From Amphiscolops sp. MND2022 (lineage: Eukaryota), in contig OZ076411.1 of the NCBI GenBank assembly GCA_964187785.1, forward strand, positions 57,102,001 through 57,166,000: a stretch of DNA of 64,000 nt. Reading direction: 5' to 3'. Below the pieces are notes generated by a model. The model was not told where the DNA came from. It saw only the letters and a program-made list of their open reading frames with translations, and did not search any database. How positions within the stretch are numbered: the first letter of the stretch is position 1; each line of letters begins with the position of its first letter. Below are positions 8,949-57,993 of the stretch, one piece after another. The position numbers were made by a program, and so were the translations under genes.

Positions 8949-8955
8949 TTTAAAC
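8949..8955 (+). promoter_or_regulatory. Predicted -1 ribosomal frameshift slippery site U UUA AAC before the gag UAG
   Basis: X XXY YYZ heptamer in the gag frame. The -1 frame reads KLETPRLY, versus KLDSPRLC in G2. Confidence 0.65.
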
Positions 8956-20072: not shown

Positions 20073-20289
20073 ACTCGGCATCCTACAGTTTTCGCTGTAT
20101 GCTTTCAAAGAGATGGAATTTTACTGCTAGTGGTTGGAATTGAATGAATAAGGCAGTATCACGTAATGTGATCAAGAAAGTACACACTTTCAATGACAAA
20201 CATGTGCGATAATGTTGATGTTTGATATACAAAGCCAGTGCTCTTTTGAACTTAATATGTTTGCAGAAGTTCAGACTGGTGGCAGCTCA

Positions 20290-22687: not shown

Positions 22688-22873
22688 AGTCATTTTCCGC
22701 AAATAGTGTCCGTGTCTGCTCACTAAGATGTCCCAAGAATGGCATAAACGGAATGTTCGACTATTTGAGATCCTCCCCCTCGGAAATTGAAGTACTGAGC
22801 GAGTCTGGGGGAGAATTCATAGTGGAACCGGGAAATGTACAAGAACTGGGTGAAAGATTCCGCATTGGAGGCC

Positions 22874-25334
22874 CAGCTCATATGCTATGTCGGCGTTTGT
22901 GGGGGCAGCTGCGGTAACCCTTTTCCCACCCATTCCCCTCTTCTTCAACCCCAAAACGCCACTAACTTGTCTGGATCTCAGATTGAAGGGCAGTTAATAG
23001 AGTTAATTGACGAGCACCAAAGTCACCGGTCACGCCCCAACATCGTTTATCGACACTGAGTTTGAGGAGTCCCCTGAATTGTCTGATGACCAGGAAATGG
23101 AGGATAACCACTCATTAAATAGCTATAGTAGACCCTCCGCTACAATCTTACAAACCCCAAGAGGAAGAGGCCGAGGTAGAGGTCTGGTCTTACGCCCAAT
23201 ATGAACCTATCCAACGGGGTTTTCAACAGAATCAGGGCAATTTCACTGTGATAGGAGAGAATACACAAGAAATACGAGCGAATAGTTTCAACAATGAGTA
23301 CACCAGCACACAAATTGGACTACAAATTACTAACCCAATCATGCCAACGGTCAATATTAGTAACCCCGCGACGATGATGATACAGATCCCACCAATTATG
23401 CCCAGCTTCGCCGCAGTCCAAAGTGGTCATCCAGTTCAACCAATGCCACAGCCACAGCAAGTGACTTCAATGCAGACTAGCACCAATGACCAATGTGCTC
23501 TTGTTACCCTCAAACGAAAGGGACCTATACAAGTTGTCACCCACCGTCATGCCGACATCGCGGGATTTTGCAATTGGTGCGGTCGTACTGACGACCAAAT
23601 TGGCCGGAGACTCTAGGAGAATATCTTCTGGGAACGGCGTACGATGCTGAGACAGTTAGGGACCGAAATATTCGGTCCCGGGCGTTCATCGATGGGTTTG
23701 AGGTTGCCCTGTTTGGACTTCAAGTATGCAGGACTGTCGCAACCCAGGAGTTGCGTGATAGCCGTGGCCCATCAGTAATCAACGCCAAACAAGATGGCAG
23801 CCAAAACCAACTCCCAAAGCTAGGAAGAATCAAAACTTTAAACCAGCGAACTACATTTTGTTTTGTTTATCCTGTTGGTTTTTGTCAGGAAGTCATGTAA
23901 ATATAATATTTCAAAAATGTTTGCCTTGAAAGAAACCTTCCTCATGCTGCTAATGAACATTAAAACTTCATTGACAGCCCTTATTTACACACACAATGAG
24001 TCACCCCTGTCTCAAATGATATTGGACTTGGAAGCTTCAATACATTAGAAATCGTCCCCATATAGTAAATTGCATCTTAACATGGTACCACTTTGCGGTA
24101 TCATGCGGATCAAGGAGTGACGTATACTCGTCACCATGCGGACTTGTCGATATCATTATGCGGCATTATACGTTTCGAAGTGTGACGCATACTTGTCACT
24201 ATGCGCTTTTTGCAGAGACACTATGCGGCATACTGAGGAACGAGTAGTGACGCATACTCGTCACTATGCGTTTCCAGCAGGACCAATTATATAACGTGAA
24301 TACGTGTACTAGTGCTATTTGGAAAGCATCCCAAATACATTTGTTACGTTATCTTAAGCAATTTCCAGGGTTTCTTTAGTCCATTTCTCAATGATATTTC
24401 GAAAGTCATGTAATCAAGTTGATGTTATAAATAGTATGACGATATCTTGACGTAATCCTGTTTTTGTCTTTTTGCAACAATGACTTTGGTAAAAAAGGAG
24501 TGTCATGGTATTTTCGGAGTTATTTCATTGTGAACTGAGATAGAGGATCATTCAAATCTCAACCGTCAACTAGTGCAGTTGTTCTCTTCATACATCTGTA
24601 AACCTTATGGTAACATTGTGATACTCACAGATGTTGTTCTTTTGAATAGACAAGATAATTCAAATTCTTCCCCAAAAGTCAGAAACTATTTTTCACTCAA
24701 AGCAATATGGGAAACAGACGTAATAGACGTTCTAGAAAAATGGAAACCCCTTCTCCAGAGAGGGAATTAGAGAAAACGCAAGTGGAAACGTCTGTTACAG
24801 GCAAGGAGATTTCAACTAAATTGAATACGTTTGTTCAAGGAAATTCGAGTGAAAATATTTCGGAAAATCAGTTGACTGAACCCAGTCAATTCTGCAATGA
24901 AATCCAAGTATGGACACAAATTATGGAACAAAAGAATGATGAGAAAATTGAAAGAATGAGAGAAGAATTGGACAATAAACTAGAGGCTATCTTGAGATAA
25001 TTTAAGTCTAACAAAGCTACATCAACAGTAACAAACATAAGATCAGAAATCAACGAAATACAAGATTCACAACCGTGGGGATCCAAAACAATAAGGTCTA
25101 TTGGAGTTTGCATATCTAATATTGAAAACTCAGGTTCAGAAAACGACGATTATCCTCTCAGAGCTTCAAAAATGAAAGACTTGAAACATGCTGCAAATCC
25201 ATTATTTCAAAACGAATCCGATGTAGACATAACGATACATTCAAACGAAGAATCCGACGCAGAAGAGGATTATCACAAGTCATTTTCCGCAAATAGTGTC
25301 CGTGTCTGCTCACTAAGATGTCCCGAGAATGGCA
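22874..25334 (+). repeat. Tandem copy of 20283-22744 (ORF3 + LTR 23735-25277 + 57 bp of flank)
   Basis: Offset 2590-2591 bp, about 99% identical by eye; 129-bp unique spacer at 22745-22873. Confidence 0.95.
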
Positions 25335-26901
25335 AAGAACGAAATCACAATTGCAGTTGCGGAGAACCTAAAAGCAGACCGAAAGCAAACCGGAACAGCC
25401 CAAGTCGGCGCCCCGCTCACGTTTCAAAAATATTCAGTTTTTAAATATGCAAAATGGCACTTTTGTTAAAGTTTCATCAAATTTACAGTTCCAAAAAAGA
25501 CGCAGAGGATATGCATATGACTCAAAAACCACTTTTTCCCCAAATGGAAATGGCAAAAAAACCTTTACCGAAAAAAACTATATCTTGCTCAACCGAAAAC
25601 TTCTCAAAAAACGAATAATTGAAACAATCACAAAAAAATGTCGGACAGTATTGATTTCAAAAAAAAAGGGTTTTTCAAAATCCATCCTGTTGCAAAATAT
25701 CAAAAAAAATGTATGGGGACTTTTCGAGACAATAAAAAGTTTTTGAAAAAGTCTTCCAAAGCCGAAAGGGAAAGAAAGCCGGGTGGAAGTCTTGCAGTGC
25801 CAAAAGAGTGGAAAGGGGACCCCTTTTGCTTTGGAATGGTTGCGTATTTCATGTTAGAGGCTTTGAATGCTTTCAAAATCAAGTACACGTTTGGTAAAAG
25901 TGCACATTGCACAAAAAGTGGACCGAATATTTGAAATAACGAAAAACAACTAGCCACTGTAAGAGTCGTGCTTTTTCTTCGAAAACGCGGACTAAAAATT
26001 ACATCAAACCATAATGCTGAATCACAGGGAATAGATTTTACATTTGCCAATTTTACATCGGATATTTTCTCTGTGGGCGTCTGTACACACTCTGTCATGT
26101 TACCTTTCTACATATTATCCTTGTGGCACGATGGTCTTACTTTTCATAAAAACACTTGAGTTCATCGAACTACACAAATTACCAGACAATACTGAATATA
26201 GCAAGGAAATAGATGCGGAAACTTTTTGTAATGCAAGCTGCGGTTAGAACCGTTATCCAGCTTTTCCATATTTGGGAATCATGCGAAGCCATGTCTATGA
26301 ATTTGTTACTTATAGCTATGAGCGTTGTATTATTGGATTAGCCATCGAAGGTACATATATTTGAAATTATTTGCAAACAGGTTAACCAGTTGAGTTCAAC
26401 CGTAACTGGGTTAAATCGGTATAATTTTCATGCTTCAAAAATGTCCTTCAGCAAAAGATACACATTTATATATTGTGGAAATGAAATAATTGTATTCGAA
26501 ATTGTGATACATACGTGCCATTGAGAAAAATTCCCCTTTTCAGATTAGGAGTTTATGTGTACTTACGTCAATAATTTACAAAACTAATTTGATGCATGAG
26601 AAAATATACATGGGACAGGACTGAGATTTCTAATTAAAGTCTCAAACAGAGGCCACCAAGTAAGAATCAAAATTGGCTGAACACCTATCAAATCAAGGTG
26701 TTGTCAGCTCTTTTTCGCACAAATGCATTATTTGAAGTTTTGAAATGCTTTCTTCAAAGTTTTTGAATATGTTCATCAACATGGGATTTGAAAACACACT
26801 TCCTCGAAAACACACTTTTGGAAATTTGCGTGTGTGAATTTTGGAATTCGGCTGTATTTCAGGTGAGGTTGACGATGGGATTTTAGGCAGCATTTACTTA
26901 C

Positions 26902-27098: not shown

Positions 27099-27199
27099 CT
27101 CAGGTGATTAGTCACTTTCACACCCAAAAAACCTGCATGAAAAAAGGAAAAAACTGTCAATTGAAGTTGATGATTTGTAACGGCACCCTCTGGTACGAA

Positions 27200-27289
27200 A
27201 AATTCAGTCGATATTGGAATTTAGACTTTGGACATGTCCAGAAAATTTTTGAAAAATTCTAATTCGATCTTTGACGTGGCACTGAGCAT
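27200..27289 (+). repeat. ~90-bp dispersed repeat, second copy at ~31224-31313
   Basis: aaattcagtcgatattggaatttagactt...tctttgacgtg(g/a)cactgagcat occurs at both sites. Confidence 0.85.
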
Positions 27290-30200: not shown

Positions 30201-31992
30201 TGCATCAGTCCTGAAGTGTTGTATACTTTTCAGCACGCTAAAACCCTTGGAAGCAGTTTCGACACACCTTGGACGTGCATATCCATTGTTTCCGTTTAAG
30301 TTTTCACCAATACGAAAATTGGGTTATATTGGGGTAAAAGTCACCTTCACGTGCTGTTGGACTGTATCGCGTGGACTCACTTACTTGCATTTTGTTACTT
30401 ACAGTTTTGATATCCCATGTATTGTAACGAGTTGGACCATTTTTGGCAGCTATCGGCGCACCTTATTGCAATGTTGGGACTACATTGCTCTGGATCAATA
30501 TTATCAATGTCATTTAGTGCACCGTTATTAACAAAGTTACCTCGCAAGCTCAACACTGCGAATAAGAGTCTTTGATTGCACGTGGCAAATCGTGTCAATT
30601 GAGAACCGGTGATACTGAACGCCTGTTACAGATGCAGATCTCGCCCAATTGCCCAAGCCCTAATTGGTGCTTATTGCAATGTACCTGGCTCCACGTGGGA
30701 TTGTGTGATCAATTTTGAGTACAATCCCACGCTTACAGCGTGTGTACAAGCCACTGAGTGTTTTTCAAAAAAATCCGAAACCTCGAAAAAGCCTTGAAAA
30801 AGACTCTCTCAATCCTGGAAGAACTATTCACTTCGGGAGGTTAATTTTTTATCCTGTGTGTCTGACAGAACGTGCTGGCAAGCTACAACAGCTAGAATGA
30901 ATTTGAACTAAACTCAGACACGCGCTTCAACAAAATCCCTAAAAACTGTCAAAATATGAACACTGTAAAACCCGAATACTTTCGCTGCACAGGAAGCACG
31001 AAGGAAAAGCGTTCAAATTCCAACAGTAAGGACCTAGTAGGCCTCCCTTGGTGCAAACGAGGCGAAACCTACGGTTCAAAAAAATGCCGGCATCGGTCAA
31101 AAATTTTCGACAACCCTGAAGCATCGAACTTGAAATTTGATTTTTGCAAAGCTCAAATCGGAAGTTTGTAAGTGTCTGAGAATACTCCGGTCTTAAATTT
31201 GCAAACAACCTACTTGTACAGTAAAATTCAGTCGATATTGGAATTTAGACTTTAGACATGTTCAGAAATTTTTTGAAAACTTCTAAGTCGATCTTTGACG
31301 TGACACTGAGCATTAAAAATTCACTGATTGGATTTAATTTTACCAAGCTGCTTTCAAGTTGCATCCTAAATTTGGCGGCAGTTTTGCGCCGCAACGTTTT
31401 ACAGGTTTCATTAAGACAGACGCCGTTCTAATTTAGAAAACAGCTGGGAACTTCATCGATTTTACCGCGATTTCAATGCAAATAAACTTCAGTCAGATTA
31501 AGTTTTTGTTTCGAAGTAGCGTCATAACCAGCGTGCTATTTGACTAACGATGATTACATAAGGTATTTAAATCAGAAACTTATGCGTGAAAACAAAGTGA
31601 TTGCGGTGGTGAAGAACTGAAATTGTATTCAGGTTTAATTCAAACAGTGGAGGCTGCATTGTAATCCTACAAAATTTCCATGCAAGCTCCCGGAATTTTC
31701 CATGTTTCGTAAAAAAAAATAGCCTGCTTGTTTCCATGCAACATATAAAAAGTTCAAGCCATCTCGACTAGGGTAAGCACATGTAAAATCCACACGTTCA
31801 TTTTGGAAACAAGTATCAGAAACAGTACTACAAATGTTTGTGGTTTCGTTGCCTGTTGAAACTTCAATTGACAGTGAAAGAAACTAGTGCTGAAAACAAT
31901 AGTATACCCTTTTTTGTGAAGTTTTCAATTAAGTAAGCCTTCAAGTTCAAAACTCATTGTAGAATCAGTAATATCAACAGGCTATACAGAAT

Positions 31993-32694
31993 TTACTTTA
32001 ACATGTATGAAAGAACACCATAAGCTCCAAAAAGGATGACGATCAATAAATGGTGGATGCCGTAACCGTCGTCTTCATCACTATGATAAGAATCTACTGA
32101 ATTCTCTCTCTGACGATTTATATGGTTACTATTCGTCCCTACTGTCCTAGGGAAGTCTTTCTTGACGTCCAGGGACGTTTTCCCAGCGATTTGTTGATGC
32201 GGTCCATCTGACCTTAGGTCCCTATGTGGACGTACTTGTTCAAAAATTTTCGGATGCGGTCCATCTGACCTTAAGTCCAAATGAGTATTTTGGCTTTCTA
32301 ACACGTTCCTGATGCTAGGAATCACTTTCCCTTCAATTGCTGAGTCTATTGCATTTAAAATATGCGAATTAAGATCAGATCTCATTTCTTCTAATTTCCT
32401 GGACATTTGCGAAGAAATTTCTGAATTTATTGCTCTACTAGTTTCAACTGTAATTTCACTATTTTTACTTGCATTAGTATTCAATAAAGTCCTAAAATTC
32501 CCACTAATTGAGTTTACTTCCTTGTTGGATTTCCTTGAGTCTAAATTTAGACCAGTATCGCTAAGGTTTTCATCTCTAACTTGATCACTCTCTTGGTAAT
32601 TTCCCAACATTATATCTAAATTCTCAATATCTGACATAACGTCTGATTGTCTGGAACGCTTCTCTCTAGCTTTCTGCTTTCTAGTCGAAGGCAT
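31993..32694 (-). CDS. LTR-encoded Gag N-terminus (212 codons) reading out of the 3' LTR into flanking DNA
   Basis: Near-identical to the first 212 aa of gag up to DEDDGY, then continues GIHHLLIVILFGAYGVLSYMLK* in the flank. Expression is unknown. Confidence 0.6.
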   Translation of the reverse strand: MPSTRKQKAREKRSRQSDVMSDIENLDIMLGNYQESDQVRDENLSDTGLNLDSRKSNKEVNSISGNFRTLLNTNASKNSEITVETSRAINSEISSQMSRKLEEMRSDLNSHILNAIDSAIEGKVIPSIRNVLESQNTHLDLRSDGPHPKIFEQVRPHRDLRSDGPHQQIAGKTSLDVKKDFPRTVGTNSNHINRQRENSVDSYHSDEDDGYGIHHLLIVILFGAYGVLSYMLK

Positions 32695-33436
32695 AACAAT
32701 GGATTTGATGTTTCAACAGTGAATTCACTAATATCAATGTCAAATCAAAGTAGTCGTGTATCGTATATCAGTAATATCAATAATGATCCTTTCAACAACG
32801 GGTTCCTGGTATATATAGTTGCAGGACCATGACAATCATTATTTGGGACGTCAAGGTCCGAAAATATACGTGACGTCATGTTTACTATAAGTAGCTGAAG
32901 ATACACTACACGTCATATTACGTCAGCAGCTATAAATAGAATTAGAACAAGTTTAACTAGCTAACAGGCAACTTTGGTGACTACATGTGCATGACACTAC
33001 GTCATGTCAAACTAAACTAATCAACGGTTGAAATGCATGAAGAGGCATGGTGACCTAACGTCAGAGTGACTGCACTAAAGCACTGTGATTATAGGTAGCA
33101 CCGTATATATATGAACACTGTATGACAACGCGTCAACTAGACTGCAACGGCGAGTAGTTGACGCATTTTATTTAACATTATGGCAAACAAAAAATATTGC
33201 AAGTACTTTCATGGGGTCAACGTGACCTTAGGTCAAAACAGTAAGATAACTGGTTTCATGACTAAATGATTGCTAAATTGGATTAATATTGACAATTTCT
33301 TGTAAAACAATCTACATCAATCGTAGTTTGAGTTGTTTTAGTTTCTACAGTGGGAGCACTCCGGGTGCGGGACCAATTTGGAAGTCTTCGGGCATGACTT
33401 GATATAGCAAACCGTCACAGGCGGCAGCCTGCGACT
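32058..33436 (-). repeat. G2 3' LTR (1379 bp)
   Basis: Matches 46009-47344. The first base is T>A mutated; a short purine run (GGGGAA) lies upstream as a weak PPT. Confidence 0.95.
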
Positions 33437-35976: not shown

Positions 35977-38900
35977 ATGGATACTTTTGCAGGAAGCGAA
36001 CCGCGATTATTCATTTCCTTTCATTTAGAAAACGAAGCAAATGGCCAACCAGCTCAGGAAGCAGAAGAAATCATGGACACTAGCTCTCCCAATTTAGCAC
36101 GTAGAGAAAGAGGTGACAGTACATCAAGTGATGAAATCGAAGTGATCGAGATCACTTTATCCAGTCCCGAATGTACAAACGTTGAGTTAACTCGTCCGCC
36201 TGTTGTGTCAGTAAAAATTGAGCCGGAGATCACGGAGTCACAATTAGTCGCTGAAATCCGAAGGAGAAGTGGATTTTCAAGTAACAGCAGTACTGGCTCT
36301 GACGAAAGTTGCGGAGCATACCTGACAAGAAAACTAGGCGAGTTGGAAAAAGCAGCACAGCCAGAAGTTTCAAACGAGACCACTAGTGAAGTCAAGCAGA
36401 GTGAAAGTGAGCCAATTATTCTTCGTCCCGGCCGTAGCCCGACAGCTGGGGTAACTGTTGAACCTCCCAGGAATCAGGCTCCCTCTGGACTGACACAGAC
36501 TCTTTCCCTGGCCAAATTTATTGGCACAACCTCTAGCCCTGGTGATAAGGGTAATAAGCCAGGTGAATCGGCTGACTTCTACGAGTTCACATTTGCTCCA
36601 GCACCAAAACACAAATCCGTCCGCAGTGAGGGAGAATGCCGTCCAAATGACCCTACGTCCTCGGGCCAGATCAGGCACTTCGTAACTGAGACCCAATCAG
36701 TAAGTGGAACTGAAGTCCCAATGTTGAGTGATCATGACTCTACCCGATACGCGCGGTCAACATTGGCAGAAGCACTGGCACCTCCCGAGGTTTAGAACAT
36801 TCCTTATGATAGTGGTGAATCTGACTATGAGTCGACTGTGCGGATACCTACAGCAGCAATTAGGGAGGCTCCTATTTCCATTAGTAGCAAGGAAACACTC
36901 CGCAAATGCTTCAGTGAGACAAATCCCATAAGTCTTGCACAAGGGCACCCGACCGTGGCGTTTAACCAGGAACAGATGTGCCAAATATTGAAAGTGTTTG
37001 CTGACGAGACGGCTAAATCAACCTTTAGGATGATGAATAGTCTCATCGAGAAAGCTAGTCGACTTAATTTGAACCAGGGCCCCTACGCTTCCAATAGCAT
37101 GCATCGACCCAAATCTTTTCAATCGACGTGTACTGATTCAGAAACTGACCGTTATAAACTGCGTCACAGGACCCCGACTAAACAAAGTGACTTTTAGGAC
37201 ACTGATTACTCATGCGAGCAAACTCCCAGTCGAACGTCAGAGGTCAACATCCCAAGTCCTCCAGTACCTGGTTGCAGTCGAGATGACCCTCGGTCTCCTG
37301 AGTTAGGGCAAACCATAGACAGTCCAGGAGCTCAGACTTTAGCCGAGTTAAAGCGAGAAGCGGCAATGAGTAAAAATAAAGGAAAAAGGAATTCTAAGCG
37401 CCCAAACAGTTCAAAGACAAAGAAAGCAAAGAAGTCCGTGTGGAGGTCTAACAAGGTGATGCGCGAGGAATTATTTGAAGGCATGGGTTGAGCAAGAACA
37501 TTCGTTTCTGGACCAATGGACCCCAAATGGAACCCCTACAAGTTTTACTGCCAAATTTGTAAGGGAAATGTATCTATCTACGGCAGAGGTGCTAAGGAAA
37601 TACTCAGACATCACGCAACAGAGCGACACCTGCGCAGGGACCAACGATGGCGTTACGAACACCTGTCAGTAGAAGATCCAGCCACAAAAACATTTCGTCA
37701 CTACGTCAGTGATAAGAATGGTAAACTTTTGACACCTTACGAATTGGAACTAGAGTATCCGAAGTTCAAAGACAAAGCTCTTGTCGACATTGGTGAAAAG
37801 CTACCATTTTACGACGAGGCCATGGCAGGCAATACCCACATGACGTCTTCGTCTGAAAGCAGAGTACGAGTACAGATTTCGATTTTGGGACACTTCCTAC
37901 CTAACTTCGGTGACCTCAGGTCAATGCGCAGCTTGTGGCAGGACATAGGAATCGTCGTCAACCATCAAGCCTTGTTCTCTGACTTCAACTGGGGAAAAGA
38001 ACGCCTCTCAGTAAGTCCTCATGAAACAACTTGATCTTTTGATATGTTGGTACTTTCCACAAATCATGTATCACTTTACGGTACTGCTGTTCTGAGCTAA
38101 GGTTACTACTCGAATCCCCTCATTAGCATTCCGTATTTGTGTTTTCAGGTCCTGTTTCATCACATATTCGTGCGGATGCTGGATGACCTAGGACACTACA
38201 TCGTGGCTGAAGGGCAATTTGCTGTAGAATTTGAATTGAAAGGTCTGTTCCTCTTCTTGCACTTGCGATTCTGGCGCGACAATCAGCTATGCCGTGTCGT
38301 CTTGAAAAGGACAGGGCGAACTGTCGGAAAATTCCAAGCTGAAAAACACCTTTTCTTCAGCCTCTTGGGAGCCATTTCAGCACGACCCAATCCAGTTTGT
38401 GCCAGTGGATGTTCACTTGAGTTCGTTCAAGAACTGGACGAGGGTCCCTTGTTCACATTTGGGGTGCAAAGCTTCAAACGCTTTGACGAGGTGTCACTGG
38501 CCAAGATGATGCACAAGGACAGTTATTCCGTTTTTGGGCGAATTGACTTCTTTTCCGTACTGAAATATCTCGTCGTCTCGCTCGGAGGCAGCCTGGACAT
38601 GGAGTGCGTCTTGCTAGCCCCCGAGTTATCCAAGGTTAGGATCTTCCATTGTTTTGGGTTTTCATGCCTGACTTTGGGTCTCAATGCTTGGGTTGTTTAT
38701 AGGCTATCAGAACATGCCAACTAGACGTTTCCAAACTCCATGTACTCTGTCAGGAATTGTTGAAGCACTGGAAGTCGATCGTGGAGTTCCTCACTGCGCA
38801 TTCGCCAAAGCAGCAGATGCAGGGAGTACACAACCAGGTTGGGATTAAGTCAAATAGACCTTTGGTCAAACATTCAAATTCCTTCACAGCGATCAAATGT

Positions 38901-40406: not shown

Positions 40407-43400
40407 CTAGTATCTGTGTTCATCAGTAAAGTTTGGAGTAGGGTTAGGACGTAGATTATATTTTCCTCCCCTGGGACTTTCATTTTCTACAACCATTTCA
40501 TCACTTTCATTGCTTTGCGGTCATAGTATTCTTTGTACTTTAAGTACGACTGCATGATGTTTTTCTTCGTTTTATCGATCAGAATTTGTGTACGTCGTTG
40601 TAATTCTTCGGCAAAATCCGTTGTTGGGAGAATTTTCGGGTTGGGATTTAAGCCCAACCGGTGGTCTAGAATGTTATACGGTACTCTTCCATGGAAAATT
40701 CTGGAAGGTTCGCATCCTAGACTTGAATGATAGGTCGTATTGTAGTTGAGGACAGCCAATGGTAGATACTTGTGCCATTGGCGACGGTATTCACCGGAAG
40801 CCATTTTTAGGTTGCCCTTAAGACTGGCATGAGTTCTCTCTAATTTACCTATCGTCTGAGGATGCTTCGTCGTTGCACATTTGATCTGAATACCCAGAAT
40901 TTTTGCGACCTCGTCGACTAGACGTGAAGTAAAGGCTGTTCCTTTGTCAGTAATCAGAGTTGTTGGTAAATATGCATGCCTTGTCATAATATCAATAAGT
41001 ACTCTTGCGGTACTAGAGGCTGAAGCGTCAACTACAGGATAGGCGAAGAGGTATCTTGAGAAGACATCCAGAGCAGTAATGACATTTTCATATCCCCCAC
41101 TCGGTGGGAGGTTAGGTAAAAGGTCAATTTGTAAGGCGTCTTCAGGACCAAGATCCCATTCAGGTAAATTAAGTAGTTCAGGCGTGATTGATGGGTTTTT
41201 GATTCTTTTGTCTTTTATGCAGATTTCACATCCTTGGACCTACTTTTGACGCTTTTTGCTATTCCAGGGTAGTAATATTTTTGACGAATTTCATAAAGCA
41301 TCTTGGAGATTCCTGGATGTTTATTCGTCATTCCATGTAGTGAGTGGAGTAGCTCCGACACAAGGTGTTTAGGTAAGAGCGCCTGTCTGTATAGGACTCT
41401 TCCTGTTTCGTCATAGTAGTCTCTAGTGACAACGTCATCCTGAACGGACAGACGGTCAATTTGACTGCAGTAATGTCAGAAGCGCGAATCTTGATGTAGA
41501 ATTGTTTCAGAAGATTCTTCTTTCTGCAGTTTGAGGCGTAACTGGTGTAAAACCACGTCGTTTTGTTGCTCAATAGCCATGGTGGTAGAAGTTGACAGCA
41601 TCTGCAAACTTGTCATTTGTGAAGAAGCACCCCTGTGGGCACTGAGTTTCTCTAGGGAGATATCAGGTAATTGATTTGTTGGATGAGACCTGGCGTCCTT
41701 TTTACGTTGCCAGATTTGTTCCTCAGTTTCCTCATCCTCTTCAGTGTAGAAAATTTGGTCTTCTTCTGTCACTCCGGCCGATTGGACGTTGAGTTCAATG
41801 GGAGTGGTTGATATATCTTCGCGTATACGGAGTACAAGTTTTTCTTTAGGACAAAGCTCCAAACGAGACAAATAGTCTGCTGCGGTGTTATTTTTGCCTG
41901 GTATGTGGGCAATTGTGAAACTGAACTGAATAACGTAGTCACACGCGTTCCACAGGGTTGGTGGAATGATTTTAGTTTGGAAAAAGCGAGTGACCGACTT
42001 GTTGTCTGTTAGGATTATCACCGGTTTCAGGGTCCCCCAAAAGATATGCCCAAATTCCTTGAATGCGAAGAATATCGCTAAGAACTCTTTCGCTTAGATA
42101 GACATTTTCAGTTCGGTGGGACTAAAGGTCTTGGATCCATATGCTACGGGTGCGAAAGACTTTCGCGTTGAAGTATACTTCTCACTTGGATCGTCCTCGA
42201 TGAGAACTGCGTAACCTGTCGCCAAGAAGCTAGCATCAGTCATTAATGCTATCTGCTTATTAGGCAGAGGTTGTTTGAGTGCAAGTTCACAACATCGGTC
42301 AAGAGCTTTGTTGATCTCGGTGAATTGTTCTAACAGATCGGGTGTCACTATGACTTTGGCATCGTTTTTCAGTAGTTTGAAGAATGGTGTAAGTTTCTCT
42401 GACAGCCTTGGGATATAATTGCGATAATAATTGAGGAATCCCAAGTATCGCTCGAGAGCCGTTTTGGTTTTGGGAAATTTGGTCTTCTCTAGGAAGTTTT
42501 GGACTCTGGGTCGTTGTGGCCGCACTCCTTCAGGAGTGATGGTACGTCCCAGAAAGTCGATTTCCTTGGCGCCAAAGTGGCATTTGTGCATCGTGAGTTT
42601 GAGACCTGCAGTCCGGGTGCACTGAAACGTAGCTGTAAGGTTTCGAATCAGCTGCTCAGCAGTGTTTGCCGCGATTCCGATATCATCGACGTCCTGTGCG
42701 CATTGGTCAGCTTTGATCACCTTGTCTAAATAGCTCGAAAAAGCAGAAAGAGCTCTGCTGAGACCTTGCGCCAATCTGCGGTATGCGAATGTCCTGCTAG
42801 CAAAATTGAATGCAAGCATCTCGATGGACCTCTGGTCCGCCATTTGTAGACAATGATATGCCTGCGAACAATCTAATTTACAGAACAGGCGTTTGCCTGC
42901 CATGTGCTGTGCGGCGTCCGTTAAAGTACTCAAAGGATGATTGTTGTTGATATAATCATCAGAGATCAAATATTTGATCTTGCGAAGATCGACCAAGAGT
43001 CGTAATTTGCAATTTGGTTTTTTCTGGGCAAAGATTGGACTTGCATATTTAGAGAATGGAAGTGTGGTTATGATTCCATATCGATGTAGGAGGGCTATTT
43101 CGACGAGAATATCTTCTTTGAGATTAATTGGCGTTAGAAGGCTTTGACTATAAGCTGGGGATTCGTCTTTAGGTGTGAGCTTGACCTTGAATTCCTCGTT
43201 CATGCCTATATCAAATCGGTGTCTCGCAAATATGTCATGAAATTCGCCGAGTAACTCTTCAATTTGGGTGATTTCAGCTGGTTGCAACGTAGAGTCTGTC
43301 CAGTCAAAATTGGCAAGGAATTGGTTTCTAGACTCAGGGTCATCCTGAGGGTTGAGTTTTTCCAGTTCCTGGAGGTTTTGTAGTTCCTTCAGGATTCGTT

Positions 43401-44860
43401 GCTGAATCGGGGTATGGAGCTGAGGGTCTCCAGGTTCTTCTGGTGTAGGAAACTAGTAGTTTTCTTGGTCTTCCCCAGTCCCTGTAGATTGAATCAAACT
43501 GCTTGCGTAATAGGCAGCATTTTCTGGATTATCTTGCAGGAGGTGCCATGTGGTAACCGCGTCAATGGGTTTGACGTACTTCATTTGCTCTGGCGTCATG
43601 ACAGAAAAAGTGGCAATGTCCGAACCCCGTTTGAGGGTATATGGCTGATCAGTGAAATTATTCACGTGGATCGAAACCTGACCTTGGGTCAGTGTGACTA
43701 GAGCGGCGCAAAAGGCTATATCACCGTCCTCAGTGAGGGCGTTGCTCAGTTGGAGGATTCCGGTGACATTAGTGTCAGCATATATATTGGAGTACATGGA
43801 GACCACGTGTCTGTCATTGGGCGGGATAATATTGTCCTCGCGTATAGTGACAGGTTCCATGACGTTAGTGTACTTGTGGTCCGCTGTCTTCAACTGCATA
43901 GAAAAGAATTGGAATATTAAAACTCCCTGCCTCATGTCCAATATAGTATTATTCCTTTGAGGAATGAAAGACCAATTAGCGGACTTGTGAGCCTTTCCAT
44001 GACTATGAATATCTCGTGGAATTCGATGTCCCCGACTTCAAATTTGAGTTCAACAGTGCTCTTTGGGGTTTCCAGTTGTCCATTGGCAACCATTATCTGG
44101 AAGTTGGGTGCTGGTCCCTCTTTGACTATCGACTGGGGGGCTAATAATCGGATTTTACGTAGATCAGCTTCTGGGATCGCACTAGATAGAGCTCCCGTGT
44201 CTACTAGGCCATCTAATGTTAGTTCGCCAAAATCCATGGGAAAATAAAGCATACGTCTCTTATACTTTAGTCCAAGATTTGATGTCAACGGAACATAATC
44301 GGGTTCACCGTCTCGTGAGATTAGGATGTTCACAAATCGTTCCTCTACGGTTGCAGTCAATGTGACCACAGGTCCATTTTGAGAGAACTCTTTCGGTGGG
44401 TCTTCCTGAGTGACCAAATTGGTGGCAGCCCATTCCTCTTGCCAAGGGTCTACGAGAGCCTTGGTCAGAGCTGGGTTGAGATTTTTGTCGATTTCGTTGG
44501 AATCTAGTTCTGTTTCCAAAGGGTTTTTGTGGAAATTGGTATAGAAATGGAGGTGATGTTGGTTGTAGATCTGAGCGTCCCAACAAGGATCGAAACCGAG
44601 ATCTTTATCGCGGTAGTATAGGTTATAGTCATCTATAGGAGGTAGAGGTCGGATAGTAGTAGTATTACCTTGCAGTCTGTCGGACTGATGGTCCAAGTCA
44701 ATTAAATTGGTGGGAGTATTTTTCACCTGCTGCTGCCAGTCAGCTGATGAGTTTGCTTTAAGGGATGAGTAGTATTCGATGTAATATATAGTAGAAGGGT
44801 CAGAAATTATGTACTGTCTGACGCGTAGTTTACCATTAAAGCAGAGTCGTGGCGAATCTA
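40407..44860 (-). pseudogene. pol: G2 pol (protease, RT, RNase H, integrase with C-terminal deletion)
   Basis: LVDTGA; RLLVDLRK, FAYRRLAQGL, DVDDIG (YVDD mutated); MTDASF; HPGISKM; TDKGTAF...KLERTH; ends KYNLRPNPTPNFTDEHRY*. Confidence 0.95.
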
Positions 44861-44867
44861 GTTTTTT
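44861..44867 (-). promoter_or_regulatory. Predicted -1 frameshift slippery site A AAA AAC before the gag UAG
   Basis: The -1 frame is open from this site through the protease ORF to 43932. Confidence 0.75.
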
Positions 44868-45994
44868 GGGTTTTTGAGGATAGACGTGGTGGGTTTGTTA
44901 TTGTTGGAGTCATCTTGACTCATAGTAGTTTCTCCTGGTTTGGAATTTTCCAAATTGAGGTTTTTGGGCTTGAGGTGAGCTCCAGCGCCTTTCCAACATC
45001 GTTCCGCCGGGTGATTTGTTTTGTCGCAAGTCGGACATTTTGGATATTCTTTCTTGGTGTCCTGCCCTTCAATGCGGCGTTGTTCCTCCTTTCTTTTGAG
45101 TTTGCGGCAGTCGTCTTTGACATGCCCGGGTTTTTTGCAGTAATTGCAAGTAATTTTTGGGTCAATGCCAGATGAGAGGAGGCCAGTACCCGGTCGTGTT
45201 GTTGTCGGGGCTGTGGACATTGTGGGGACGTGGATGTCGTCGCTTTCCTCAAGTCCATTCAACTCCAATTCACGTTCGAGGTGTGTGACAATCTCTGCGT
45301 AGGTCGCATTTTCAAGTCGCGCCATATTGACTGAGCGTTTCAGTTTGGGCGGCAGTTTAGCATAAAGCAGACTGTCAATCATTGCTTGAGCATGTTCCCT
45401 AAAGGCTTTTTCAGCTCCTTGGTTAAGTTCTTCAAGGAAATCGGGCAATTTCATAGTATTCGGGTCAAATACTAGTTTATGCCACTTGTGTTTGGCAGTT
45501 GCCTGAGACTCAGCTTTGACATATTTCCTACGGAAGACCGCTAGTATATCTTCCAAGGTTTGTCAATTGGTTGAATTGATGTTACGGAATGTCTGTAGAG
45601 CGTTTTTGCGTAGCAATGAGTGAAAATGGTTGATTTTCATTGTTTCCGTGATGTCTGGTTGCATTTTTATCATCGTATGAAAAAGATCTTCAAACAGTTC
45701 AAATTTTTCAGATTTGCCATCAAATGTCAGTGTTGTCGTACTAAATGGTCGTACCATCAGTGTCTGTGCTGATGGTTTGTTGTTCATACCCATAATCACG
45801 TCAGCAAGTCGATTAATGGGGTCTATTGTTGGTTCGGAAGGTACATCTCGGTTATTGGTGGGGACTGTTGGGAATTGCGCCGGGATGGTTGTGTCAAGCG
45901 TATCGTCGGTGACACACTGTTGGTGTGAACTTTTATTTCGAAATTGCATGGGCCGTCCGGTCAGGAACTCAGGGACCATTTGAGGGGTAAGGTT

Positions 45995-46008
45995 GGCTCC
46001 TGTTACCA
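45995..46008 (-). promoter_or_regulatory. G2 primer-binding site TGGTAACAGGAGCC, translated within gag as MVTGA
   Basis: Immediately follows the LTR end ...TTACGACA. Confidence 0.9.
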
Positions 46009-47344
46009 TGTCGTAACCGTCGTCTTCATCACTATGATAAGAATCTACTGAATTCTCTCTCTGACGATTTATATGGTTACTATTCGTCCCTACTGTCCTA
46101 GGGAAGTCTTTCTTGACGTCCAGGGACGTTTTACCAGCGATTTGCTGATGCGGTCCATCTGACCTTAGGTCCCTATGTGGACGTACTTGTTCAAAAGTAT
46201 TCGGATGCGGTCCATCTGACCTTAGGTCCAAATGAGTATTTTGGCTTTTTAACACGTTCCTGATGCTAGGAATCACTTTTTTTTCAATTGCTGAGTCTAT
46301 TGCATTTAAAATATGCGAAGTAAGATCAGATCTCATTTCTTCTATTTTCCTGGACATTTGCGAAGAAATTTCTGAATTTATTGCTCTACTAGTTTCAACT
46401 GTAATTTCACTATTTTCACTTGCATTAGTATTCAATAAAGTCCAAAAATTCCCACTAATTGAGTTAACTTCCTTGTTGGATTTCCTTGAGTCTAAATTTA
46501 GACCAGTATCGCTAAGGTTTTCATCTCTAACTTGATCACTCTCTTGGTAATTTCCCAACATTATATCTAAATTCTCAATATCTGACATAACGTCTGCATG
46601 TCTGGAACGCTTCTCTCTAGCTTTCTGCTTTCTAGTCGAAGGCATAACAGTGGATTTGATGTTTCAACAGTGAATTCACTAATATCAATGTCAAATCAAA
46701 GTAGTCGTGTATCGTATATCAGTAATATCAATAATGATCCTTTCAACAACGGGTTCCTGGTATATATAGTTGCAGGGCCAAGACAATCATTATTTAGGAC
46801 GTCAAGGTCCGAAAATATACGTGACGTCATGTTTACTATAAATAGCTGAAGATAGACTAAACGTCATTTTACGTCAGCAGCTATAAATAGAATTAGAACA
46901 AGTTTAACTAGCTAACAGGCAACTTTGGTGACTACATGTGCATGACACTACGTCTTGTCAAACTAAACTAATCAACGGTTGAAATGCATGAAGAGGCATG
47001 GTGACCTAACGTCAGAGTGACTGCACTAAAGCACTGTGATTATAGGTAGCACCGTATATATATGAACACTGTATGACAACGCGTCAACTAGACTGCAACG
47101 GCGAGTAGTTGACGCATTTTATTTAACATTATGGCAAACAAAAAATATTGCAAGTACTTTCATGGGGTCAACGTGACCTTAGGTCAAAACAGTAAGATAA
47201 CTACTTTCATGACTAAATGATTGCTAAATTGGATTAATATTGACAATTTCATGTAAAACAATCTACATCAATCGTAGTTTGAGTTGTTTTAGTCTTCGGG
47301 CATGACTTGATATAGCAAACTGTCACAGGCGGCAGCCTGCGACA
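46009..47344 (-). repeat. G2 5' LTR (1336 bp; ~42-bp deletion relative to the 3' LTR near 47293)
   Basis: TGTCGCAGG...GACA; the deletion is flanked by AGT microhomology. Confidence 0.95.
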
Positions 47345-47375
47345 GTGGATGATGAATGTCATTGTAATTCCGAAA

Positions 47376-50400: not shown

Positions 50401-53400
50401 GAGTAATCAAAGTAAACTAAGCAGTACGAGTAATCAAAGTATATTTAGGGCGTGAAACGTCGTGATTACTCGTTCCATCATCAAAAATCTTTAAAGCGCC
50501 AAAATAATCATGTTTCAATCAGCTGAAAGCTCTGTAGTTAACCAAAGTGTAATCTAGCATATACTATAGTTTGTAGTTTCTTAGAGTTACCCTTTCCAGT
50601 TGAGTACTAGAAAAACACAAAAAAACCTTCAAGAACTTCTTCTACTAGCAGAGGAAAATTTTTTGTTATGAGCAAGTTCCTGCTGTTCTACGCTAGTCAT
50701 AATCCTCCGAGAGTAAAGACTTAAAAATCAATTACCAATCACCGCCAATAGTATAATTCTGAGTTGAACTGACAGACCCTAGAACACGGATGAGTCTTTG
50801 CGAGAGACTAGAAGCGTTGAGAGAACATATCGCCTAACACCTCTCCGCATTGTCCGATTTCATAAGAAGAGGAGTCAGTGAGTGCAGCGGTTGGCAATAT
50901 ATCGTTAGTCCCTTCAGAGTAAGGACCGAAGTCGTAGTAGATTTCGTGAGAAACCATTCAATTCATAGACGAGCCAACACTGGTGCCAAACGGCTTTCAA
51001 GCCACCAATCAGTTCGCCAACGACATGGAGCAATTGTCCAGGCTGAGTGTGTGCGCTGAAAACGGTACGGACAGCATAATACTCCATTTGTGAGCCATGT
51101 ATGACGCATGTAAGCCAGCCCTAACCGTGGCCAGCTTCTGCCGACAGTTCCAATTCAATGGATGACGCCGAGGAACGTCGAGAAATACCTGGTCTCCACT
51201 GGATGCCACAAAAGATGGTCTCGAAAACGGGCCTAATTCCAACAAGAGACTAGGAACTGAGCAACACATATACAAGTGGATCAGGGAAGTATGTGCAAAT
51301 GTGACTCCTAGGGACTCCCAGACTAGAAGCAAGCGTGGACCCACTGGGTTCTGAGGTGCCTGTATTCAGCGCCAATAAGATTCCGTTCACAAACGCGATG
51401 TCTTGGATCACTGCAGCAACTCCGCTGAGAACTCCGACTGGAAAGGGTAGAACGAGGAGAGGAACTAACCCCTAACTACAGGCGCCCGTGTTGACCAGTT
51501 AGAGATATCCGCAGTCACACCGAACTCTCAACTGACTCGACAACTACGAGAGCAATTAAAGAACCAGAAGCAATCAGAAAAGAATTCACACAAAGTCGAG
51601 TCAAATTACCGCAATACCAGACGAGACAAAAATAAGAAATAATGAGCATGCTGAAAAGATAGTGATAGCGATGGACGATATGAAAAAGAGGTTGACTGAG
51701 ACAGGAATGGAAGGGAGGATTAGTCAAGGCAAACTAGAATCCTCGATGGCATCGATTAATGATCTAATACGGCATCGAGAAACACTAGCTAGCACTCGAT
51801 TGACAGAGATGACTACGCATCATTAGGGAACGAGATCATTGTCGTCTGAAATCAACGTCAGAATTGATGCAACACAGAGACTCGGAACGCAAAAATTGCA
51901 TGATGGAACTCACTCATGGCAACTATACAGGCCCTCATCCTTGGGTTGAGGGATGTAGTGGCAAAGTCGGCCAGAGGCTCGAGTCACACTCCAGCAATAC
52001 CAACGGCCTTTGGCAATACCCTACAAGAATCGATACCATTATATTGTATTATCGATGTTTCAGTTCTCTCCTTGAGCGCGTACCAAAAGATCGCCCTGAG
52101 CCTATTGCTTAATGCTGATTTTCTATTAAACGCAGCCATCGGCAAAAGTATCATTACAATTGGCATTGCAGAAGATGTTAGTTTTCAGCTAGGATGACAC
52201 TCTTTGTGGGACGAACTTTTTTTACGAAAATACAACGTCTTAGTGGAACTCACAGCAATGTGGGTGATCATAAGAGACCAAAAGACACCCAGGATCTTCA
52301 AGGCAATACATGAGGTGAGTGAAAACGAAACATCGTTCATGGGAACACCTGAAGAGGTAACTTTAGGACCTTTTGAACGTAGATTAGTGTGAGAGCAAAT
52401 CATAATGCTCCAATCCAAAGAGTTCACTTTTGAAATGTAACAGTGCACCCTTACACCCTACGAACTATCACACCGGCTGTTTCAGAAGTCACACTACATT
52501 CAGTGGCGGAAGATGGTGTTGTGTATCAGAGCCTCCAAATCATAACTGCATATGAGGATACTATAAGCATTAGGTTTCAATTGAACATTATTTGGAAACA
52601 AGTTCGGAATTTAGATCATTCCCACAAAATTTAAATCATCCCACAGTCAAACATAGGACTATCCGAACAAGCTATTCGCAAATAACGAATCAATAACAAT
52701 ATTCAATGGCTAGGGAAAACTAGTTGACATCCTGAGTGAATACCAAGATTTGTTTATGAAAAACAAAGCATATATCCGACGATGTTAAAGAGCAAAACAC
52801 AGCATAGAACTAGTTCCGGAGGCTATGCCGCACCACGAGGGAGGTACAGGAATGGCCTCTGACAAAGCAGCGAAAGCCAACCAAGAAGTGCAAAACCTTT
52901 TGTCTTTTAAGGATTATTTAGAGAACCATTTATAAAGAACCATTATAAAGAACCATTTTGTCTTTTAAGGATCTTTAAGGATTATGCAACCCGCCTTCTC
53001 ACTGTAGGCAAGTGACATTGTCATGGTAAAGAAAAATACAGGCGAACGTTGCTTTTGATGTGACAGTGAAGGATGCTTTTCCGTTTCCAAGGATAGACAA
53101 GAGTCTGTCTAGAATAGAACATGCGAAAATTTTTATTAGCATTGACTTGCATGAGTCTTCTGACAGACACCGCTGAAGAATCGAGAGAGGAGAAAAACAG
53201 CATTCGCGTGTGAGCTAGGCCTGTTTGAATGGCGTCGCATGCCCTTCGGGCGTTGTTATGCATCGGTCACTTTCCAAAGATCGTCTACCAGAGCGCTTCA
53301 AAAGATCCAACAACGGCACTGTAGTGTCGTGACCTACTTAGACAATACATTTATCGCAACAGGAACCATTGAGGGTCACTTAGAAAGACTTAGAGAAGAG

Positions 53401-56400
53401 TTTGAATGTCTCAGAGAGGCCGATTTCAAAATGCGCTCCGAGAAATGCAATTTCATGCACACAGAAACCAAATACCTAAGACGGATTGTTTCAGCAGAAG
53501 ACATCTAGCCGGACCCAGAATCAGTTAGCATTTGCAGACAACTACGGAGACTTCATTCCTTTTCTCGCCGCTAAGGTACAACCTATGCAGTGGCTGCTGA
53601 GAAAAAATCAACACATCTACTGGAAGGAGAAACTCTATAAGAAGCGTTGGACTCAGTGAAACAGGCGCTATCTGACGCCACAGCTTTTGCTGCACCAAAC
53701 GAACAAGGACAATTTGTGTCAGATCCCGACGCAAGTGCAGTTGCTATTGCCGAAATCCTGCACCAAAAACAAGAACACGGTTGAACAACCATTTTACAGC
53801 CATCTTTCAGGGAGACAAGTTGTTAACACGGACACAGTTCAATTACGGAGCACCTAAATTGGAAATGTAGGCAGTCTTATACTTTATCGAGAATTTTTAT
53901 CACTCTTACATTGCTGGTCGAGAAATCAGGCTTCGCGAGGACAAGCAAACTCTCTCATGGTGAAGATTTTGTCCATGAATCAGACCACGATTAGACGCTT
54001 GACTCTACGCCTCAACCAATACCACTTCAAGACGATTAACACGTGCATTGGAAAAAAAATCTATGAGACCTTACCTGGAATGAGCAGGGGTTTCAGTTTC
54101 ATCTCACATAAAGATTATGGAGACCTCTCATTCTACGACAAACATGGATGGATTATACCAGTTGATACGAGCCTACGGCGGAAGCCAGAGCTCAACTCCT
54201 TGTGTTGTACAGTTTCTAAAAAAACGATCAAAAGGAGAACAAACGAGAGATCAGTCTCCCAACACCATACTTTGGTCCCAGCGGTACAGTGGGAAACGAC
54301 AACCACGTCAACCAAGAATGAAAGAGACCAAACTGCATCCTTAGCAGCACAACCAAAGTTCCACGTCTAGACGATACTGAACGCGACTGAACGCGACCCA
54401 GCGTTGGACAGATTCCCTCCGGCGTATCAAGAACAGGAAGACGTTCTCAGGCTGGTAGGAACTGAGCTACACAAGCATCAGTGGACCAACCATGCGTGGT
54501 CTGAGGGACCTACACTTAGCTCAAAATAAGGACGTACATCTTTGAGAGTTATAAAATTCATGAACAACGAACCGTTGAGCGAGGCCCTGTTCCCAGAGGA
54601 CGTCCAGGATTTGGCAAAACGATACTATCACAAAACGAAAGATTTTCTGTTCATGAATCCCGATTACATATTCTGTGTCAATTACGGTGGCAATGCACGT
54701 ATGACCATAAGCCACAGCTGTATCATCATGAAATTTTATAGAGAGCGCTCAATGAGTCAGATCACCAGGGCGTACGGAAGGTGCAAGCAACGATACAAAA
54801 GAGACACACGAAACCAGGCATCAAGTTAGATGTGGTCATTCAAAATAGACATTGCCTAACGTCTCAATCAACAAAATATCCCGCTGGGAACCCCAGCTAT
54901 CCGCTGCAGAGCATCGATAGCAGCAACTTCAATGACCTAGTTCACATTGACCACTTGAAACTATATAAAACGACGTCAGAAAACACAGGACTCAAGGTCA
55001 TTAAAGATCACTTCACTGTGAGTTTTGCGGAGTCAATCCCATGTATTCACGACGAGAACGACTAACAAACAACAGCGTAAAGAATTCTAAACAAATGATC
55101 AGCCAGGCACGGCCCCGGCGGCCAGAATGCAATCAGACAACGCAACAAACTTCAAGCAGAAAAACATCACAAGAAACAGCAGAAAAAGCACAAGAACTCA
55201 TGAAAACCTCGCTGAGGTAGTTGTCTGGTGGAAAGACAAAACAGGACATTACTCATCTTGCTGAGAGTCTACACGTCTCGCAGAATGCCAGATTGGGACG
55301 GGCACATAAATGGAGTCTGGGGAGCATAAAATTCCACAAGACACGCAACGACAAGATTCTTGCCATACATGATCTTGCATGGAGCTGAAAAATCAATCCT
55401 GTTCTCAATCATATATCCTAAAATTGCAGCGCAAAGAATTGGGTCTGAAGCAAAATGTGTATGACTCCTCTCAGGTAGACAGCAGGAAATTCATGAGCTT
55501 GTTTGCAGGAACACACATCCAGCACACTTGAGACATAAACAGAAATTTGACAAACACTCGAAAGCGCAATCACACGTCGTTTGTCACAAAATCCCAAAGG
55601 GTGGTACCCGCAAATTAATTAGCTCTGGGCGTAGACCTCATAACTTTAATGATGTCTTGCAAGTCGGTAGGTTGAAGGTACTAGACACAAGGCAAAAGGT
55701 CCATTTTGAGCATTTGAAGAAAATTGTGAATTGGGCAGCGCGTTATTGGGCTGCGCATCAACCCTTCGGCTTGTACCAGAACGAAGCCATTGTTGTAGAC
55801 CCATTTGTTGAAGAAAGCAATGAGAAGATAACATCGGTTATATCCAAAGACTCCTTCTTGTCGGAACAACTACCGGAGGCATCGATCGAAGTAGAACCAA
55901 CAAGGCCAATCCCACCCCACATGACTCAAACGCGCACCCAGACAGCTTTATAACAAGGGATCTTACGTAGACGACTCAGTCATTTCGGATACCCGTTTGA
56001 ATCTGAGTCAGATCACGAGATGATTGAACAACCGATAGAAGAAACACAACAACCAGTGGTTTTCCCTGAACTGGATGATCTCAAGCCATTGCATTCAGAT
56101 CAAGATGAAATCTTTCTTGAACCCGCGTGCAACATCTGACCTTCCTTGAACATCGACCCCCACTATCGAACCCGTAACTCACTGATATACTCAGCAGCTT
56201 CCCACTCTTAAGTTCCCAAGCTGAAGACTCAGCACAACCAGAACCGTTAGTGGCGAGCAAGCACTCGAATATGAGTGAAGAAGAAAGTGAACCTCTCCAC
56301 CAGAGCACCACAGTCCCCTCATTCCAGTGGGTCAACAAGTCATAGAAGAAGTAGGAGACGAAGTACTACTTCATGGATCATTGTAACAGCAGGATCGATC

Positions 56401-56831: not shown

Positions 56832-57993
56832 ATGCATAACACCTCACCCTCTGATTGCCCCAATTATTGCTTTAGTGAATGGACATATCACGAAAAGAGT
56901 GGACTGGATTATTTCTCTCTAGCTGCAATGATCCCACCACTTCCGACATTGACGGTATTTGGGGAGATAGATCCCAGGAATGAAAAAGTAGAAATGATAC
57001 GCTGTATTGTGGACCAATCGTGGACCATCGTCTACAACAGTTTGGACACAATATGGTATGACGTCCCCTCACGGAGATGCATATCATCCAACTGACAGTT
57101 GGTGGCTGCTAGTCACCTCCTTAGACGAAACGTCGTCGCTGTCGCCAGGAACGTTGCTAATTTGCCTAGAAAATGTACGCACACTCGTAGAATTGAACAA
57201 CACATTGTGTTTGGGTCTTGCGGATGCTTTTCGCGGAAAGTCAGCATTGGTTGATATTGATAGCTCTTAATGTTCTGTACACAAGCAAAGGTACGCATTC
57301 GTTTTCTACAACAATCACACCTATTCCATCGGAACACCATTAACGGTGGTTCAAGCGCTCTCCATGGTCCACGAGTGGGCAAGTACGAACATGGTAGAAC
57401 GCCCGCTGCGCCTCATAGTATTGCTAGACCGCAACAACATGAATGAAGCCTTCCATCACCTTGTCCCCGATTGGGCAAGTACTACGAACATAGTAGAACC
57501 CTCGCTGCGCCGCACGGTATGGCAGGACCGCAAAGCCATAACTGAAGCCTTTCATCACCTAGTGACAATCACAGGACCCTGATATGGGAACACTGACATG
57601 GGAACACCGACATGGGAACACCGACATGGGAACACCGACATTTTGCAAGCACGTGGTACCGTGGCGATATGCTGTCCGGCGGACTTGATCTCCTACTCAG
57701 GAAAGGCCTGTTACGTGATCAGAAAATTTGGCCCAGAGAAAAGTTTCAGGCTACTCGCAGCCGTAGAAAAGGCAGTACACCTAGCCAATTCACCGGACTC
57801 TTCGTTGAATAACAATATCTTTGTCCTTTTCACTCGAGCATCCGGCCAACAACCACTCCTGCATGACTTAATACACCAATGTGTTGCAGATATAGTCATG
57901 AAACTCACACTAAAACAAATAAAACAGGTACGATTTTCCATAAAAGATCTGGAAGGTCGACCATTATCTTACCAATGTAGTATACGATGCTGA
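56832..57993 (+). pseudogene. Extra ORF downstream of the element D integrase, ending in a macrodomain-like (TARG1/OARD1-type) region at ~57640-57960
   Basis: AICCPAD..SG.A....KFG ... IFVLFTR...QP...L..QC aligns by eye to the TARG1 pattern AHCISED.MG.GIA..FKKKFG...IYYLITK...KPTYENL..SL. Frameshifted upstream. Confidence 0.55.
57584..57639 (+). repeat. 14-bp tandem repeat x4 (ATGGGAACACCGAC)
   Basis: Directly visible in the sequence. Confidence 0.95.

Follow-up and report, generated by a model that had tools for sequence, protein, structure and literature searches.

A Ty3/gypsy-type retrotransposon lineage in which gag appears to start inside the long terminal repeat

Long terminal repeats (LTRs) of retrotransposons are usually regarded as sequences that encode no protein, and solo LTRs as nothing more than promoters. 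In yeast Ty1, the LTR share of GAG amounts to approximately 40 nt. The primer-binding site (PBS) of Ty1 lies within the GAG ORF, is 10 nt long, and occupies RNA nucleotides 94-104 (PMC4974528), and the disordered N-terminus of Ty1 Gag is described as needed for transposition (PMC10002725). A deeper start is reported for Tca5 of Candida albicans, a Ty5-like copia element whose ORF is open from nucleotide 382 of a 685-bp LTR, corresponding to approximately 100 codons or 44% of the LTR, and which is known as a low-copy single family with very few solo LTRs (PMC4139406). Ty3 resembles the elements described here in its gypsy domain order, but its PBS lies outside GAG (PMC4974528). In zebrafish Bhikhari and foamy-virus Gag, a helical N-terminal module precedes the capsid, as a predicted helix does here; the available text of PMC12067270 does not place that module in the LTR.

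One acoel genome is described as LTR-rich, with no detail on families (PMC9911081). A search of mainly open-access papers found no description of the present lineage or layout. The layout differs from Ty1, which has few LTR codons, tRNA-iMet, and copia order, in having 115-220 LTR codons, tRNA-Leu, and gypsy order. Tca5 is a copia element with a single ORF, whereas the present lineage has several families, with cassette ORFs in the thousands, gag and pol in different frames, and additional ORFs. What exceeds the precedents is the gypsy context, a coding stretch of 115-220 codons in several families, the cassette ORF count, and coding over both LTR ends and both primer sites; the depth of the start, which the earlier note had set against the few tens of bases of Ty1, is not unprecedented in view of Tca5 (PMC4139406).

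Two decayed elements in the window

The window, a 64,000-nt stretch from Amphiscolops sp. MND2022 (OZ076411.1, positions 57,102,001 to 57,166,000), contains two related LTR elements, G1 on the plus strand and G2 on the minus strand. G2 is a 15.3-kb Ty3/gypsy-type element (47344-32058) with a 5-bp target-site duplication, and its direct terminal repeats together with the duplication TCCAC identify it as an LTR retrotransposon. It also has a 5-bp terminal inverted repeat and a PBS directly after the terminal CA. Its features are as follows:

47345-47349, minus strand: left copy of the target-site duplication TCCAC, flanking G2
46009-47344, minus strand: 5' LTR, 1336 bp, TGTCG...CGACA; the 3' LTR is longer by 43 bp
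46761-46768, minus strand: candidate TATA box TATATATA, recognised by motif only, 123 nt upstream of the gag ATG with no ATG between
44858-46645, minus strand: gag, with DUF1759 capsid region and zinc knuckle, a stop at 45565-45563, and an AAAAAAC slippery-type heptamer at its end, before the pol frame
46010-46645, minus strand: LTR-encoded Gag N-terminus, 212 codons, with basic tip, predicted helix (approximately residues 83-136), low-confidence linkers, and acidic end
45997-46008, minus strand: PBS, 12 nt, tRNA-Leu type
40487-44897, minus strand: pol, in pieces, with protease region, weak dUTPase-like match, RT, RNase H, and integrase, whose C-terminal part is missing relative to metagenome contig L002
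35944-40144, plus strand: fragments of antisense ORFs between pol and the LTR; the one at 37492-38034 contains a zinc-finger-like segment with homology to G1 and L002
33345-34160, minus strand: ORF3, 271 aa, without Pfam match, crossing the purine tract and running approximately 30 codons into U3
32058-33436, minus strand: 3' LTR, 1379 bp, with 31 substitutions relative to the 5' LTR
31993-32694, minus strand: 3'-LTR cassette ORF, 233 aa, composed of 212 LTR codons and 21 flank codons
32053-32057, minus strand: right copy of the target-site duplication TCCAC, flanking G2

The gag ATG (46645) is nucleotide 700 of the 1336-bp LTR, leaving 212 codons plus one base within the repeat. The earlier note had correctly put this ATG inside the 5' LTR, but its figure of 637 bp is the distance to the 3' end of the LTR, and its estimate that nearly half of the LTR is coding agrees with 637 of 1336 nt (48%). 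As it had also read, the frame is open across the CA end and the PBS as DEDDGYD|MVTGAN, and it continues until the stop at 45565-45563; the last LTR base and the PBS together encode M-V-T-G. The open LTR-coded frame of G2 is not due to chance, since none of 20,000 shuffles of its 636 LTR-coded nucleotides was stop-free. The peptide DLRSDGPH occurs twice in this part (window 46120-46230, minus strand). Between the two G2 LTRs there are, besides the 43-bp gap, 14 differences in the 699 non-coding positions and 17 in the 637 coding ones, and the 3' LTR begins with AG, not TG. With a stop in gag (45565-45563) and a fragmented pol, the copy is dead.

The G1 element is more fragmentary, with the following features:

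7424-7859, plus strand: 5' LTR fragment, only the 3' 436 bp, without the ATG and with a 1-nt indel relative to the 3' copy
7860-7871, plus strand: PBS, matching the tRNA-Leu(TAA) genes L003/L004 plus CCA at 12 of 12 nt
7860-14930, plus strand: decayed gag-pol with inserted repeats
17970-18455, minus strand: antisense zinc-finger-like ORF piece
21144-22687, plus strand: 3' LTR, 1544 bp, ATG at 22117, 190 LTR codons, 2 in-frame stops
23735-25277, plus strand: second 3' LTR, in a tandem duplication, ATG at 24707, 1 in-frame stop, TATAAATA 280 nt upstream

The tandem duplication (20283-22754 and 22874-25345) is 98.9% identical and takes in part of ORF3, the G1 3' LTR, and 67 bp of adjoining sequence. 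Both ATGs (22117 and 24707) lie 571 nt from the LTR end, as had been claimed, but they belong to 3' LTR copies that are followed by flank and not, as a 5' LTR would be, by the PBS. A continuous G1 frame from ATG to PBS is likewise absent from the window: the copies with the ATG carry two stops and one stop, and the EEDYH|MVTGAN junction (7859/7860) lies in the 5' LTR fragment without the ATG. Such continuity is present in database relatives (79 of 80). The G1 pair shows 7 synonymous and 30 replacement changes (pS 0.084, pN 0.087), a neutral decay.

Two related insertions in opposite orientation interrupt G1 pol (9259-10294 and 12728-13453; 87-96% identity) and probably represent a short DNA element of the non-autonomous type. 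Other elements have left RT/RNase H remnants at 6328-7420, adjoining the truncated G1 5' LTR, and at 53224-53511, and short tandem and dispersed repeats lie at 509-774, 16352-16584, 57367-57563, and 27190-27289 with 31213-31313.

Relatives, boundary, and primer site

The G2 search matched 316 proteins among 553 candidates. Among the best 120 of these 316 homologs, 84 begin with MPSTRK, and 60 run on into MVTG, mostly at residue 210-217, while 60 do not. The G1 search was restricted to longer proteins and yielded 80, of which 79 cross into MVTG with the junction near residue 190 and 61 begin with MGNKRN, MGNKRS, or MGNRRN. The upstream frame, whose lack of conservation across copies the earlier note had named as counter-evidence, is conserved across copies and families.

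A third family, G3, was seen at the DNA level. A metagenome scan confirmed two of 511 stretches, and only the contig L002 extends to the LTR. It carries a purine tract, an LTR at 7955-9746 (1792 bp), a PBS, and an open gag of 541 aa whose ATG (9359) lies 388 nt before the LTR end, corresponding to 129 LTR codons. Before the LTR, one unit contributes its integrase, its antisense ORFs, and its ORF3, and after the LTR comes the gag of the next; a single LTR in this position is the arrangement of tandem elements with a common LTR. Across G1, G2, and G3, the coding share of the LTR is 22-48%. A scan of viral contigs found no relative: of 19 pattern matches, none was confirmed.

The LTR-coded part of G3 was found in 7,449 clusters (70-226 aa) among 7,480 candidates, which are database clusters from assemblies and not copy numbers of one genome. 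Among the best 120 of the 7,449, 15 run on into MVTG, and the other 105 carry unrelated tails. Since the final base of the LTR (A) is the first of a codon, a tail entered from the LTR must begin with a residue that an ANN codon can encode. This holds for 55 of 56 G2 tails (background 174/438), after four of the 60 without a recognisable end were dropped, and for 105 of 105 G3 tails (background 417/988). Because the tails begin in this way, the end of the coding block coincides exactly with that of the LTR. The G2 tails are short and unrelated to one another (median 13.5 residues, range 1-130), also within G2 cassette clusters of up to 37 members.

A wider profile search returned 2,515 matches, of which the best 150 representatives were examined. 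These show more families with the junction in the same phase. Among the 150, 24 have at least 40 residues before an MVTG-like motif, and in 22 of the 24 the motif is preceded by H, D, N, or Y, as an LTR ending in ACA forces. Several further families with basic starts and 114-223 residues before the MVTG junction were found. In nine of the 150, the protein begins at the PBS methionine or close to it; these could be damaged copies or come from families that lack the extension.

The PBS matches tRNA-Leu(TAA) at 12 of 12 nt in G1, 11 of 12 in G2, and 13 nt in G3, the tRNA genes compared being stand-ins from viral contigs and not those of the host. Two homologs, P0097 (G2) and P0303 (G1), continue past the junction with GVGFEPTHPKI-like residues, which is best explained by copying of the tRNA beyond the PBS. 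A search motif based on this continuation located the two viral-contig genes, which were called tRNA-Leu(TAA) by ARAGORN and whose antisense reads TGVGFEPT; no tRNA gene was found in the window.

TATA motifs lie 123 nt (G2), 280 nt (G1), and 197 nt (G3) upstream of the gag ATG. Between the position 30 nt past the motif and the gag ATG there are no ATGs in G2 and G3 and four in G1. AATAAA sites have no common place in the three LTRs. All three families have a GGATCATT/GCATCATT motif 70-160 nt before the gag ATG (near 46740, minus strand; near 21955, plus strand; near 9287 in L002), preceded in L002 by a pyrimidine run and AG; it is a candidate initiator or splice acceptor. The purine tract before the 3' LTR is short, being GGGGGAG in L002 and GGGGAA in G2, with none clear in G1. 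At its other end, gag terminates in AAAAAAC or TTTAAAC heptamers, which we take to be -1 slippery sites.

G1 and G2 belong, as decayed copies, to a large lineage of Ty3/gypsy type. Their pol order is RT, RNase H, and then rve along the strand, with the protease seen as a DTG/DSG motif region without Pfam match. The Gags of P0003, P0047, and L002 match DUF1759 above cutoff, and Retrotrans_gag and zf-CCHC weakly. DUF1759 is associated with Bel/Pao; a Bel/Pao assignment was rejected since gag and pol are in separate frames and the RT matches RVT_1/RT_RNaseH and Ty3. The ranked RT matches, foamy RT (E 9e-21) and Ty3 RT (E 7e-20), do not discriminate. Ty1/copia was rejected since the integrase follows RT/RNase H, so the likeness to Ty1 and Tca5 is one of layout only.

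A weak dUTPase-like match lies between protease and RT (43456-43935, minus strand; E 0.004), the same place as the dUTPase of planarian Burro and bdelloid rotifer elements; the available text of PMC6431247 and PMC5408684 makes no mention of an LTR-encoded Gag in these. Antisense ORFs between pol and ORF3 are found in all three families (2533-6906, minus strand, in L002), have a common zinc-finger-like segment (E 1e-10 to 1e-18), and are probably pieces of a spliced gene. An atlas search with the antisense ORF gave no more than leads at 0.90 or below, including zf-BED/zf-C2H2_12-type sets at 0.86-0.87. Plant Retand (Tat) similarly has a long interval between pol and 3' LTR with antisense ORFs, but those carry TRP28, for which the ORFs here, with their zinc-finger-like segment, have no Pfam match (PMC11963269).

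In G2 and G3, ORF3 extends over the purine tract into U3, stopping 92 nt into the 3' LTR in G2, which bears out the claimed overlap of its tail with U3; in G1 it is broken. Neither the 271-aa ORF3 of G2 nor the 244-aa ORF3 of L002 has a Pfam match, and both are acidic and proline-rich; an envelope glycoprotein, as in an errantivirus or env-bearing element, was rejected on these properties. Homology of ORF3 between families was rejected, the comparison giving E 0.08 for G2 with G1 and no match for G2 with L002.

Conservation of the LTR-encoded segment

The LTR-coded part is composed of conserved blocks, a basic tip and a predicted helix, set between variable linkers, as judged from sequence comparison. 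In 26 full-length G2 Gags, the mean pairwise identity is 0.90 (residues 1-32), 0.37 (33-60), 0.71 (61-130), and 0.52 (131-205), and 0.92 in the capsid; for 51 G1 Gags the values are 0.85, 0.56, 0.74, 0.67-0.69, and 0.93. Of the 14 other N-termini compared, four are matched by a profile of G2 residues 1-146 (tip and helix), with E values from 1e-21 to 1e-9. When neutral evolution to 55% identity was simulated, the frame stayed stop-free in 13 of 2000 runs, a comparison to be read with the fact that protein searches return open frames only, so that broken copies are uncounted and the simulation understates that bias. The coding part of the G2 LTR pair shows five synonymous and 12 replacement changes (pS 0.039, pN 0.024), too few for a codon-level test. 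The conservation of the blocks could be partly due to RNA constraints.

The AlphaFold model is poor overall (mean pLDDT 46), and in the LTR-coded part its only confident feature is a helix of 54 residues (83-136; pLDDT 76-88). The homodimer prediction for residues 62-140 scored 0.02 against a mark of 0.32. The cassette had been described as basic and coiled-coil; it is basic only in its first approximately 15 residues and net acidic as a whole (-6 in G2, -10 in G1). Homology between the G1 and G2 N-termini, plausible by eye, was rejected with an hhalign probability of 0.2%, like five shuffles, and G3 gives only a borderline result (14%), the pairwise comparison of G2 with G3 having E 0.82. For the LTR-coded part, Pfam returned no families and the atlas search no usable match.

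Proposed mechanism, alternatives, and significance

It is highly probable, from the evidence of the sequences, that a gag start inside the LTR is the normal design of this lineage and that the LTR-coded part is translated within Gag. Transcription would begin approximately 30 nt past the TATA motif, upstream of the gag ATG, so that R/U5 would be mostly coding. Translation would initiate at the LTR ATG and yield an N-terminal, matrix-like module with a basic tip, a long helix, and flexible acidic linkers, followed by M-V-T-G from the last LTR base and the PBS and then by the capsid and zinc knuckles, with Pol produced via a -1 frameshift. A tRNA-Leu would prime on the 12-13-nt PBS, and the minus-strand strong-stop DNA, which the layout implies to be unusually long (approximately 550-820 nt if the starts are right), would move the coding block to the 3' end, whereby both LTRs and solo LTRs would inherit the ATG and the frame. 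Without a PBS next door, the frame would read into host DNA to the first stop, giving a capsid-less ORF, and such cassettes would be by-products that decay after insertion. The G2 3' LTR carries the ATG and open cassette as the earlier note had claimed, reading into flank over 233 aa; the extension to every such LTR fails at both G1 LTRs, which are broken.

The cassettes could be more than by-products, although we regard this as unlikely. Capsid-less Gag N-termini from 3' or solo LTRs would then bind Gag, RNA, or membranes and limit the spread of the family, or they would seed new host genes. The abundance of cassette ORFs (60 of the best 120 in G2, 105 of the best 120 in G3) is in line with such a role, as are the restriction of Ty1 by truncated Gag (p22/p18, Drt2; PMC13709905) and the N-terminal coiled coil of zebrafish Bik-1 Gag that targets membranes (PMC12067270). 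However, Ty1 restriction is described as acting through the C-terminal domain of the capsid (PMC13709905), a domain absent from the cassette, both G1 cassettes have stops and decayed neutrally, and the G2 tails are short and unrelated. It is equally doubtful that thousands of 3' and solo LTRs are expressed mini-genes, joining a conserved Gag N-terminal module to a locus-specific tail and acting as a dose-dependent brake or as a promoter-plus-domain starter for host genes. In the same reading, the two ends of the LTR and the two primer sites serve as coding sequence as well, and four Gag residues would be re-templated from host tRNA-Leu in each cycle.

A start of Gag at the PBS methionine (M-V-T-G), with the upstream frame being untranslated R/U5 kept open by composition or RNA structure, is very improbable. 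An in-frame methionine is present at the junction in every family, nine of the best 150 representatives are called from it, and the choice of start codon in Tca5 is reported as equally ambiguous (PMC4139406), but that methionine is forced by CA plus TGG and needs no selection. The shuffles and neutral runs (0/20000 and 13/2000 open), the fixed start motifs at a fixed distance, the tip and helix protein matches between distant families, and the confident helix also count against it. A misplaced LTR boundary, the repeat being a duplication that includes internal gag, would suit the tandem duplication at G1 and the AG start of the G2 3' LTR but can be practically dismissed, given the target-site duplication at both G2 ends, the 5-bp inverted repeat, the PBS right after CA, the L002 purine tract right before TG, and the divergence into unrelated tails at the same base in 55 of 56 G2 copies and all 105 G3 copies.

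Under the preferred reading, with Gag starting at the LTR ATG, excision leaves ATG-started ORFs of 130-260 codons. Gene callers already annotate such cassettes as proteins (7,449 clusters in one family), and tools that seek gag solely between the LTRs truncate it. The layout permits a direct test of whether solo-LTR products may regulate the family or seed new genes.
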